A stretch of DNA of 64,000 nucleotides from Mytilus edulis (Eukaryota): contig NC_092347.1 in assembly GCF_963676685.1 (NCBI RefSeq), forward strand, positions 48,050,001 through 48,114,000, in the 5' to 3' direction. Numbering within the stretch: position 1 is the first letter of the stretch; each line of letters starts with the position of its first letter. The notes beneath the pieces were generated by a model. It searched no databases, was not told where the DNA came from, and saw nothing but the letters and a program-made list of their open reading frames with translations. The translations under genes were made by a program, and so were the position numbers. Shown one piece after another: positions 12,501 to 15,500 of this stretch.

Positions 12501-15500
12501 CTTGATATTTATAATGTGTATGATTTGTTAATTGTGAATCCTGTTGATTGAAAAAGATTATTCATACTTGTAAGATGATTTCCTCACAGTTTGATTAAAG
12601 AAATTAGAATAAATTTATATTAATTTATCACCATGTTCCTTTATAAATACTAATTGTTTATTATATATATTATATATATGCCTTCTTTTATTCCACAGAG
12701 TTCTTAGTCCATTTAGAGCCAATGTCAATTCTTTTCGTAATTGTGAAAATTTGTATATTATTGATATTGTTTTTATGTTAAAACCATATTATAAAATATG
12801 TATCCGTTTTTCTCCTTTTTCTCCATATCTGGCCTTGCCCAAAATCCTCGTCCTGCCCGAAAATATTCGAATTCATCAATGGCCTTGATTGTCCACATCA
12901 ACCCTGACCCATGGATTGTTGGTCTGTCCAGTACAAAGCCAGTGTCACAGTTCCCGATAGCACCAGTCCCGAACGGTATGAACCTCCATATATTTTAAGA
13001 TTTGAAAACTTTGTTTTATTCATAACCCTAGCCATGGGGATATCTCATCCATCATCACTTATCATTTCATTGTATGACCCAGCTAAGATGGTGAATGTGC
13101 CAGGTTTTGAAAATTTATCACAAATTTGATGTAGATAAACATCATTGCACTGTAAGTGTGAGGTAGCAGTAGAGATTAAATTGTTCTTGATTGTTTCAAG
13201 TGAGACTTCTCATTAATTATATAAGTAAATGTTTTTAATCAGCTAGTTTTAATCTTCTGTAAAGTTTTAAAATCAAAGGTTCTGTGATCATGACTTACTT
13301 AATATCAGTATAATATTTACACTAATAATAATAATTTGAAATCAGTTTGAATAAGTTTAATCATATGCAAAAAATAGCTTGCCATTTGTATGTTGAGAAG
13401 TTTCACTTGTAAAATGACAATCTGAGACACCTGGATCCACAGTCACCATTCAGTAACGGGTCTCTAGCATTATACTATCTGCACTGAAATCCTGTGGGTG
13501 TTATCATTTTCTTCTGTATAACTGCTTCATTAATTTATAGAAACATTTTGTCAGTAGGGTTTTACATGTTGTGTTCAAGTAATAGTGGTTTCTTTCTGCT
13601 TCACTAATACACAAAAATGAATAAGAAATGCCATGCTTTCTTGAATGCCAGAATAATATGCTTCATCCTTACTGTCGCTGTGTAAAACAAAAATTTTTTA
13701 AAGGTAAAAAAAATCAGTCTTTATGTTAAAGATGCTCATGCTTATATTCAGAATCCTGTGTTTATTGTTTAAAAGACTTTTTGATAAACTGCTTTAAATG
13801 CCAATTATTAAGAATAATTTACTATTTTATTTGAAAGAATGAAAGTTTTTGCTTGATTAATTTGACTTTTATTTGACTTGTTTACAATTTGTTCTGATTG
13901 TTCCTAATCTTATAATTTGGTGTTGTGACTTTTGACAGAGTGTTAACCATTGGAGCAGAGATTGCTACAGCATTAGAATGTGTGTTAGATATTATTCCTA
14001 AACTGGAAGATGTAAGTACTCATATGTAGATTACACAAATGCAACAAGTGTGTTACAATATTTCACCACTGGAGTCAGTTAAATTTTAATATTTAAAGCA
14101 TGAGGCTTGCCGAGTTATAGTGGTGGAATCTGTTTCTCTAATGATTTTTATCCTTCCTTTTCAAAGATTGAAGAAAGTTGTGTACTTTTTATGTGAGGTC
14201 ATCAGGCATGGTTGTCTTTTTTCATGACGTCACAATAGGAAAACTCATAAGAAACCAACAATTAAATTTCAACCAATCATTTGCCTAGAACAGATTTTTC
14301 ACAAGTGAAGACAAATATTTATCAATCCGATCAATAAATGTGAAAATAGCATAAAATTAGAGAAATATAATTTTATTATCTTGGCTACAAGTTATCAGAT
14401 ATAGTTTTGAAAGGAGAGAAAAAAGTATTACAAGTAGGTGTTGGTCCTTGCATGGTATGAATTTACTGATAGTAAATGGAGAAATGATCGAAAATATATT
14501 TTTTTTCATATTTACTAAGTCTTTTGCTTGCAATTTAGAATAAAGAGCTGACAAAATGAATTGCTTTTAATTATAAGGGTAGTTCACAACTGTAAATTAA
14601 TATTATATATTTAAATGTACATGTGTATTTGTAATGTATTTTAACATTTCAGTATAAGAACTACAAAGATGACAATTTTGATTGTGAACTTAGAATGCTG
14701 GTGCATCAAAGTCAGGCAGGATGTATTATTGGTAGAGCTGGTTTCAAAATTAAAGAACTACGAGAGGTGTGTACATGACTGAAGGAAACACACTTTTCTC
14801 TAGCATAACCTTTTCTGATCAGAATTGGACTGTAAAAATTTATGAATATCAATATGTCTTAAGTGTTCTTATTTTTATACAACCTCAAACATTTTTTTGG
14901 GTTTATAATGGTATGATGTTGTCGTCGGAAGATTTGGTTTCCAGACAATAACTTTAGTTTTAGTGCATGGATCTCTATGAAATTTATAAAACGGTTCAAT
15001 ACCACACAAGGAAGGTTTGGAATGATTTTGAGGGTTATGGTACCAACCTTTTAGGAATAATAGGCCAAAAACAAGCATTTTTGAAGTTTTTGGACAATAA
15101 CTTGTGTGAAAGGGTATGGATCTCTCTGACATCTCTATCATAAAGGGAAGGCTGGGATTTAGTTGGGGGTAACTGTCCCTAACATGCTTAAAAAAGAGGC
15201 CTAACACATGCATTTTTATAAGTTACACTTAAGTGTTGTAGTGTATGGATCTCTCTACAATTGTTCTATAAGGTTCCATATTACAAAGGGAAGGCTGGGA
15301 TAGAGTTTTGGTGTAATTGATCCAAAAGGGGGGGGGGTAAAAAAAGTTTGGGAAGATTTTTTTTCAATTTCAAAATTTTTTGAAAAGTTTCAGAACAAAT
15401 GTTCAATTGCACAATAGATTTGAAAGATCTTGGACCACATTTGGCTTGTGTCAGAAACCTATATTATGTCAAAAATTCAATCACTATCCCAATTCAAACA

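Follow-up and report, generated by a model that had tools for sequence, protein, structure and literature searches.

A cluster of Muscleblind-type YGCY motifs in a KH1 intron of the Mytilus edulis hnRNP K gene and its possible part in intron retention

The DNA analysed was a stretch of 64,000 nt from Mytilus edulis (NC_092347.1, positions 48,050,001 to 48,114,000), referred to here as the window, and all positions are given in window numbering. The plus strand of the window carries a gene for hnRNP K at 9523..26587. The start codon, at 9523 in a short upstream exon, was placed by comparison with related proteins, and KH3 lies at about 23733-23885. Coding exons were located on the plus strand at 10802/10816-10917, 11917-11973, 12932-12975, 13939-14011, 14653-14766 and 16213-16341. 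Assignment of the gene to hnRNP K was based on three KH domains, orthology to named proteins and a miR-7 gene near the 3' end. Three KH_1 stretches were found in the related protein P0003, the KH2 exon was 100% identical to hnRNP K-named proteins of Mytilus trossulus and M. edulis (among 89 matches), and a miR-7 precursor was detected where the gene has its 3' end (26511-26587), with 56.3 bits, which exceeds the gathering score. The hosting of miR-7 in this position is taken by us to be a mark of the hnRNP K gene.

The first KH domain is encoded in part by a 44-nt exon (12932..12975) and a 73-nt exon (13939..14011), separated by a phase-2 intron of 963 nt (12976..13938) inside KH1, all on the plus strand. 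Skipping of the 44-nt exon shifts the reading frame and leads to an early stop, and read-through of the intron, if retained, meets a stop within it. Retention of this intron, skipping of the 44-nt exon and inclusion of a candidate cassette described below would each bring translation to an early stop within KH1. In its 5' half the intron contains a 19-nt inverted repeat (13194-13212 and 13394-13412, 89% complementary, 181 nt apart), and tandem arrays of 161-nt and 170-nt period are present elsewhere in the window at 3854-4625 and 57285-58289.

A cluster of 12 consecutive YGCY motifs, seven of them UGCUU, was found on the plus strand at 13523..13853, and is predicted to be a likely Muscleblind binding array. 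The motifs are spread over 330 nt, and lie 88-415 nt upstream of the acceptor of the 73-nt exon. A first-pass annotation of the window had stated that all 12 GC dinucleotides in 13501-13938 were in YGCY context, and this was confirmed by a recount, by shuffling and against a genome background. The annotation marked each motif by its leading Y and the re-analysis by the G, one base further. By type, eight motifs were TGCT (seven extended to TGCTT), three were TGCC and one was CGCT. YGCY was sparse in the first 525 nt of the same intron (2/11 GC steps), and the intron as a whole had 14/23 compared to 36/144 in the remainder of 9001-16500 (Fisher p=0.0009).

The chance rate for YGCY had been put at a quarter to a third. 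This agreed with the share of GC steps in the window and the genome (25-27%) and was slightly low for the locality, where dinucleotide shuffling of 13501-13938 gave 42%, with a mean of 5.07/12. None of 20,000 such shuffles reached 12/12. A run of at least 12 was obtained in 1 of 5,000 label permutations on the plus strand of the window, a test that allows for the post hoc choice of boundary. TGCTT occurred 7 times in 13501-13938, where 0.6 was expected from the window rate. The genome background consisted of 32 other 10-kb stretches (278,728 unmasked bases, both strands, 13,536 GC steps, 24.9% YGCY). Its longest run of YGCY was 8 on either strand, and none of its 3,074 windows of 438 nt had at least 5 TGCTT. 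Two overlapping background windows also reached 12 YGCY, but among 24 GC each. A cluster of Muscleblind-type motifs that is not random, in a gene for an RNA-binding protein, is well supported by these sequence counts. Short two-copy similar stretches overlap several of the motifs, so the 12 may not represent 12 independent events.

Other origins of the cluster region were considered. A tandem or dispersed repeat was rejected, as no tandem array was present there and the stretch had a single genomic match. Rfam gave only miR-7 within 9000-30000, leaving no structured RNA or snoRNA in the intron. Predicted folding of the cluster region was no better than that of shuffles (z=-0.52), and the predicted pairing state of the YGCY motifs was mixed and without pattern. 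The Rbfox-type motif TGCATG did not occur in the cluster region. A run of nine YGCY near 4618 in the window sits in the 161-nt tandem repeat and disappeared on masking.

A Muscleblind locus was identified on C3 by 5 zf-CCCH_10 matches within 50 kb, showing that Muscleblind is encoded in the genome. On its sense strand the locus has a run of 10 YGCY in 84 nt (L028:8543-8626; C3 about 92,648,500), exceeding every run in the 279-kb background. It is likely an autoregulatory site; Muscleblind autoregulation, as described in the available parts of PMC10773944 and PMC4176163, fits such a run at its own locus. According to the available text of PMC4176163, MBNL binds YGCY, above all repeated UGCU, and its tetramers include UGCU and GCUU, both of which are contained in UGCUU. 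The same text states that MBNL bound upstream of or in an exon generally represses it, and activates from downstream; promotion of inclusion from downstream is also found in the accessible part of PMC4978528. The planarian MBNL motif, reported there to equal the mammalian one, indicates that the specificity holds in a lophotrochozoan. Two features of an MBNL target, clustered YGCY/UGCU above background near a splice site and an organism that encodes Muscleblind, were found in the mussel.

RNA evidence was sought in public sequencing runs. A word-match search returned 24 rows, 20 of them with at least 80% of the words, from 9 studies, none recorded as RNA. Four runs were mapped onto 11851-14850, among them X1 as the one row of this search used as evidence. 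X1, which consists of assembled contigs guessed to derive from RNA, was the only informative run. Three raw-read runs from 2026 were small-RNA (miRNA) libraries, from which 0, 4 and 6 reads mapped. In X1 the three expected GT-AG joints were present at depths of 490, 429 and 531, showing that spliced RNA was present. The segment 12946-13967 was recovered as a single unbranched contig (1,022 nt, depth 60.8), spanning the whole unspliced intron and both exon boundaries; in this one run there was thus continuous sequence of the kind expected of a retained intron. The contig depth of 61 compared to 429 for the spliced joint would at face value correspond to about one unspliced molecule in 8, where contig depth reflects level poorly, some of the signal could come from DNA or nascent RNA, and there was no silent control stretch. 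No depth was seen in the unique neighbouring intron bins 12051-12150 and 14451-14650, holes that may come from filtering. Part of the upstream intron (11974..12931, plus strand) was also unspliced in X1, 12210-12931 at depth 35.6. That intron has no such cluster (6/15 YGCY), and retention therefore does not need the cluster. A skip joint 11973>13939, which would leave out the 44-nt exon, was not listed in X1. The intron contig had 0 differences from the genome, and the upstream contig differed by 3 substitutions and an insertion of 7 nt at 12347-12373. Over the roughly 1.6 kb that surround the 44-nt exon (12374-13967), X1 and the genome did not differ, which may reflect constraint, in one sample. 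A dispersed repeat fragment at 14111-14352 in the next intron gave many divergent contigs, with depths of up to about 1,000.

The cluster surrounds a segment of 52 nt (13652..13703, plus strand), previously proposed to be a poison cassette regulated by Muscleblind. Five motifs lie upstream of the segment, two inside and five downstream, and three of the upstream motifs fall within 25 nt before its acceptor. The sequence elements were present as described: CACTAAT at 13602..13608 (plus strand), the acceptor at 13651 and the donor AAG/GTAAAA at 13703. When the segment follows exon 12932-12975 the in-frame stop at 13683-13685 was reproduced. The segment has the anatomy of a poison cassette, being bounded by AG and GT and carrying a premature stop that is followed by downstream junctions. 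CACTAAT resembles a branch point or, presumably, a Quaking site, and a second copy occurs at 13320-13326. The donor 9-mer is the same as that of the constitutive donor at 10917 in the gene; any 330 nt have a chance of about 10% of containing a donor of the MAG/GTRA class, and the donor lends modest support. The pyrimidine run before the acceptor is short and an AG intervenes at 13624-13625 between the proposed branch point and 13651.

Inclusion of the cassette was not observed in X1. The junctions 12975>13652 and 13703>13939, which had been named as the check on the proposal, were both missing from this one assembly, and contigs drop rare forms. Of the earlier claim, the Muscleblind-type motifs stand, alongside a Muscleblind locus in the genome, and inclusion of the cassette is unsupported. 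The lack of junctions is not decisive, since rare variants are lost from contigs, substrates of NMD are depleted and one run was informative. No cassette-tailed protein was seen among 9 short KH1 relatives, from a search that gave only 13 candidates, and no segment resembling the cassette was present in 6 distant orthologous introns. Under the positional rule in the available text of PMC4176163, the sites on the cassette acceptor and inside the cassette would repress inclusion and the five downstream would favour it.

Conservation was studied with a pattern for the 44-nt exon and its donor, which gave 20 loci in metagenome contigs; selected in this way, 20/20 had the same 44-nt exon. By translation they look like molluscs, annelids and arthropods, with 8 termite-like and 3 ant-like near-duplicates. 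YGCY enrichment was observed in one of 6 full distant orthologous introns (L008, 13/25 compared to 33/111), at a nominal, uncorrected p=0.03. The 14 partial distant introns, two of them without usable flanks, had no significant YGCY excess. Comparison of the mussel intron with the introns of the other loci gave no alignment at E<0.5. No other mytilid intron was among the 20 loci, and searches of genome and viral contigs for the orthologous intron gave 0 matches each. On these comparisons the cluster is not deeply conserved. In one termite-like locus (L007:1-113), YGCY made up 12/14 GC immediately before the 44-nt exon, an excess for which C-richness is part of the explanation; in that lineage, Muscleblind-type sites may lie on the opposite side of this exon.

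The region before the 44-nt exon was found to have an anatomy of its own. An AG-free zone of 211 nt, C-rich over the last 150 nt, leads up to the acceptor (12719..12931, plus strand), and is predicted to contain a distant branch point and a binding patch for hnRNP K. Zones of 165-396 nt, C-rich in the last 150 nt, were present in the mussel and in 10/10 distinct non-mussel loci (L002, L004, L006, L008, L009, L010, L013, L014, L015 and L016; the other 10/20 were left out as near-duplicates or too short). The next acceptor had only 15-91 nt free of AG in the 7 cases measured. The zone of L004 aligned with that of L008 (E 4e-13), and that of L010 with that of L014 (E 4e-6). P0095, an hnRNP K product of 76 residues, has a tail of the kind expected when the 44-nt exon is skipped. 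Only 6 of the 26,864 seven-residue words that were tried were compatible with the tail, and all six were the start of the next exon. Judged by this tail, at least one animal makes a transcript that skips the exon. In the accessible part of PMC13751310, KATMAP describes hnRNP K as a C-rich-binding protein that silences upstream of 3' splice sites. No report of self-regulated skipping at the 44-nt exon of hnRNP K was found in the literature, supplementary tables aside, and the available parts of PMC10287951 and 10.1101/2020.05.20.107375 held nothing on splicing of hnRNP K's own RNA.

An explanation for the cluster, which we favour tentatively and consider quite possible, could be that it binds Muscleblind in the 3' half of the intron, slows the acceptor at 13939 and so keeps the stop-containing intron in the RNA. 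Muscleblind would bind the 12 YGCY motifs after the 44-nt KH1 exon, and the bound protein would slow use of the acceptor, a direction suggested by the repression that upstream sites generally exert on an exon. Some of the transcripts would then keep the intron and give no full-length hnRNP K, and the retained RNA would presumably be detained in the nucleus or degraded by NMD. Retention promoted by Muscleblind is favoured because the cluster lies upstream of the 13939 acceptor and because the form seen was the unspliced intron. Against it, the motif closest to the acceptor is still 88 nt away, beyond the branch-point and pyrimidine region. Muscleblind may in this way act, probably only in a restricted lineage, as a second input to an older switch at the 44-nt exon, in which hnRNP K would bind the upstream C-rich AG-free zone and cause skipping. 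If retention is indeed promoted by Muscleblind, a Muscleblind-to-hnRNP K link would join the network through which splicing factors set each other's levels, in a little-studied group of animals. The kind of mechanism, cross-regulation of splicing factors by unproductive splicing, is already known from the available text of PMC6547761. No report of a Muscleblind element at this hnRNP K exon was found in the literature, supplementary tables aside.

The 52-nt segment could instead be a true poison exon controlled by Muscleblind, included only in some tissues or stages or rapidly destroyed by NMD, which we consider unlikely. The centring of the cluster on an AG/GT-bounded segment with a good donor, identical to one of the gene's own, would be accounted for, as would the early stop on inclusion. 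A differentiated tissue could be without the junctions, since planarian MBNL represses stem-cell exons according to the available part of PMC4978528. If the segment is such an exon, repression by Muscleblind is more likely than activation, given the motifs immediately before the acceptor and inside the cassette. The unbranched intron contig and the missing junctions in X1 speak against a poison exon, as do the poor pyrimidine run with its intervening AG, the lack of a cassette-tailed protein among the short relatives and the absence of a similar segment from the distant introns. Another role, which appears quite improbable, is that of a downstream enhancer through which Muscleblind promotes inclusion of the 44-nt exon and opposes the predicted repression by hnRNP K at the C-rich zone. 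It would agree with the activity of MBNL bound downstream of exons (available parts of PMC4176163 and PMC4978528) and with the conserved regulatory anatomy and observed skip product of this exon. The motifs are, however, 550-880 nt from the 44-nt exon, the part of the intron next to it is the YGCY-poor one, and X1 did not list the skip joint.

Muscleblind may also have no function at the cluster. The motifs could then have arisen by chance or microduplication or be sites of another U/GC-binding protein, and the unspliced intron would be nascent RNA of a highly expressed gene; we regard this as rather unlikely. The boundary was set after looking, and if any of 128 dinucleotide-flank-strand classes is allowed the chance rises to about 2% per window, in a scan that covers many windows. 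The two-copy similarities and the absence of deep conservation point the same way. However, the YGCY motif was defined beforehand, the cluster is on the sense strand of a splicing-factor gene beside a conserved regulatory exon, its TGCTT count was unmatched in the background windows, and the intron in X1 was without difference from the genome.

Retention promoted by Muscleblind, the preferred explanation, can be compared to several known systems. The clustered YGCY sites regulated by MBNL at cTNT exon 5, INSR exon 11 and MBNL1 exon 5 (available text of PMC4176163) resemble the mussel in having repeated YGCY/UGCU in a U-rich intron near a splice site, in animals with a Muscleblind gene. They differ in that the mussel target is a bivalve hnRNP K, the product seen is a retained intron and binding is predicted. 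The mussel hnRNP K motifs are also less dense than those at the mussel's own Muscleblind locus. Unproductive splicing coupled to NMD in genes for RNA-binding proteins, with poison or essential exons and retained poison introns, likewise has splicing factors as hosts and early stops (available text of PMC6547761). HNRNPK has 0 mentions in the main text of that source, the regulator suggested for the mussel is of a different protein family, and NMD is here predicted. PTB exon 11 and other exons with distant branch points (available parts of PMC1431707 and PMC1940037) are similar to the mussel 44-nt exon in their long AG exclusion zone, rich in the preferred base of the host protein, and in a skip that shifts the frame. 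In contrast, the mussel zone is C-rich rather than U/C-rich, has a predicted branch point and belongs to the neighbouring acceptor rather than to the YGCY cluster. The planarian MBNL/CELF stem-cell programme shares a lophotrochozoan MBNL of conserved specificity, and regulated intron retention is common there; in the planarian MBNL opposes the stem-cell pattern, and a link to hnRNP K was not found in the available part of PMC4978528.

A wider proposal, which is doubtful in our estimation, joins both ends of the 44-nt exon. An ancient unproductive-splicing switch, built on a distant branch point and a self-bound C-rich zone in molluscs, annelids, arthropods and probably humans, would in the mussel have acquired a Muscleblind input via the downstream intron, tying the dose of hnRNP K to differentiation state. 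The C-rich AG-free zone before this exon across protostomes points to conserved feedback by hnRNP K and may matter more than the YGCY cluster. Two human Au-Kline intronic variants, c.214-35A>G and c.214-77G>A (PMC9606382), lie by their numbering before a 44-nt exon, and we infer that they create AGs in such an AG-free zone.

A few minor observations concern the same exon and its flanks. A bee protein (P0061) has an annotated insert of 16 residues exactly at the equivalent of the exon junction 12975/13939; a search of the first 3.5 kb of the ant and termite loci did not reveal this insert. About 230 nt upstream of the used acceptor of the mussel 44-nt exon, 12646-12698 contains a strong-looking branch point, pyrimidine tract and CAG. 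Use of this acceptor would lead to an immediate stop, and no such joint was present in X1. Three contig products from other bivalves (P0031, P0093 and P0094) extend out of or into the intron that precedes the 44-nt exon. The N-terminus of P0031 resembles the translation of 12879-12931, which suggests both retention and sequence conservation of that intron end.
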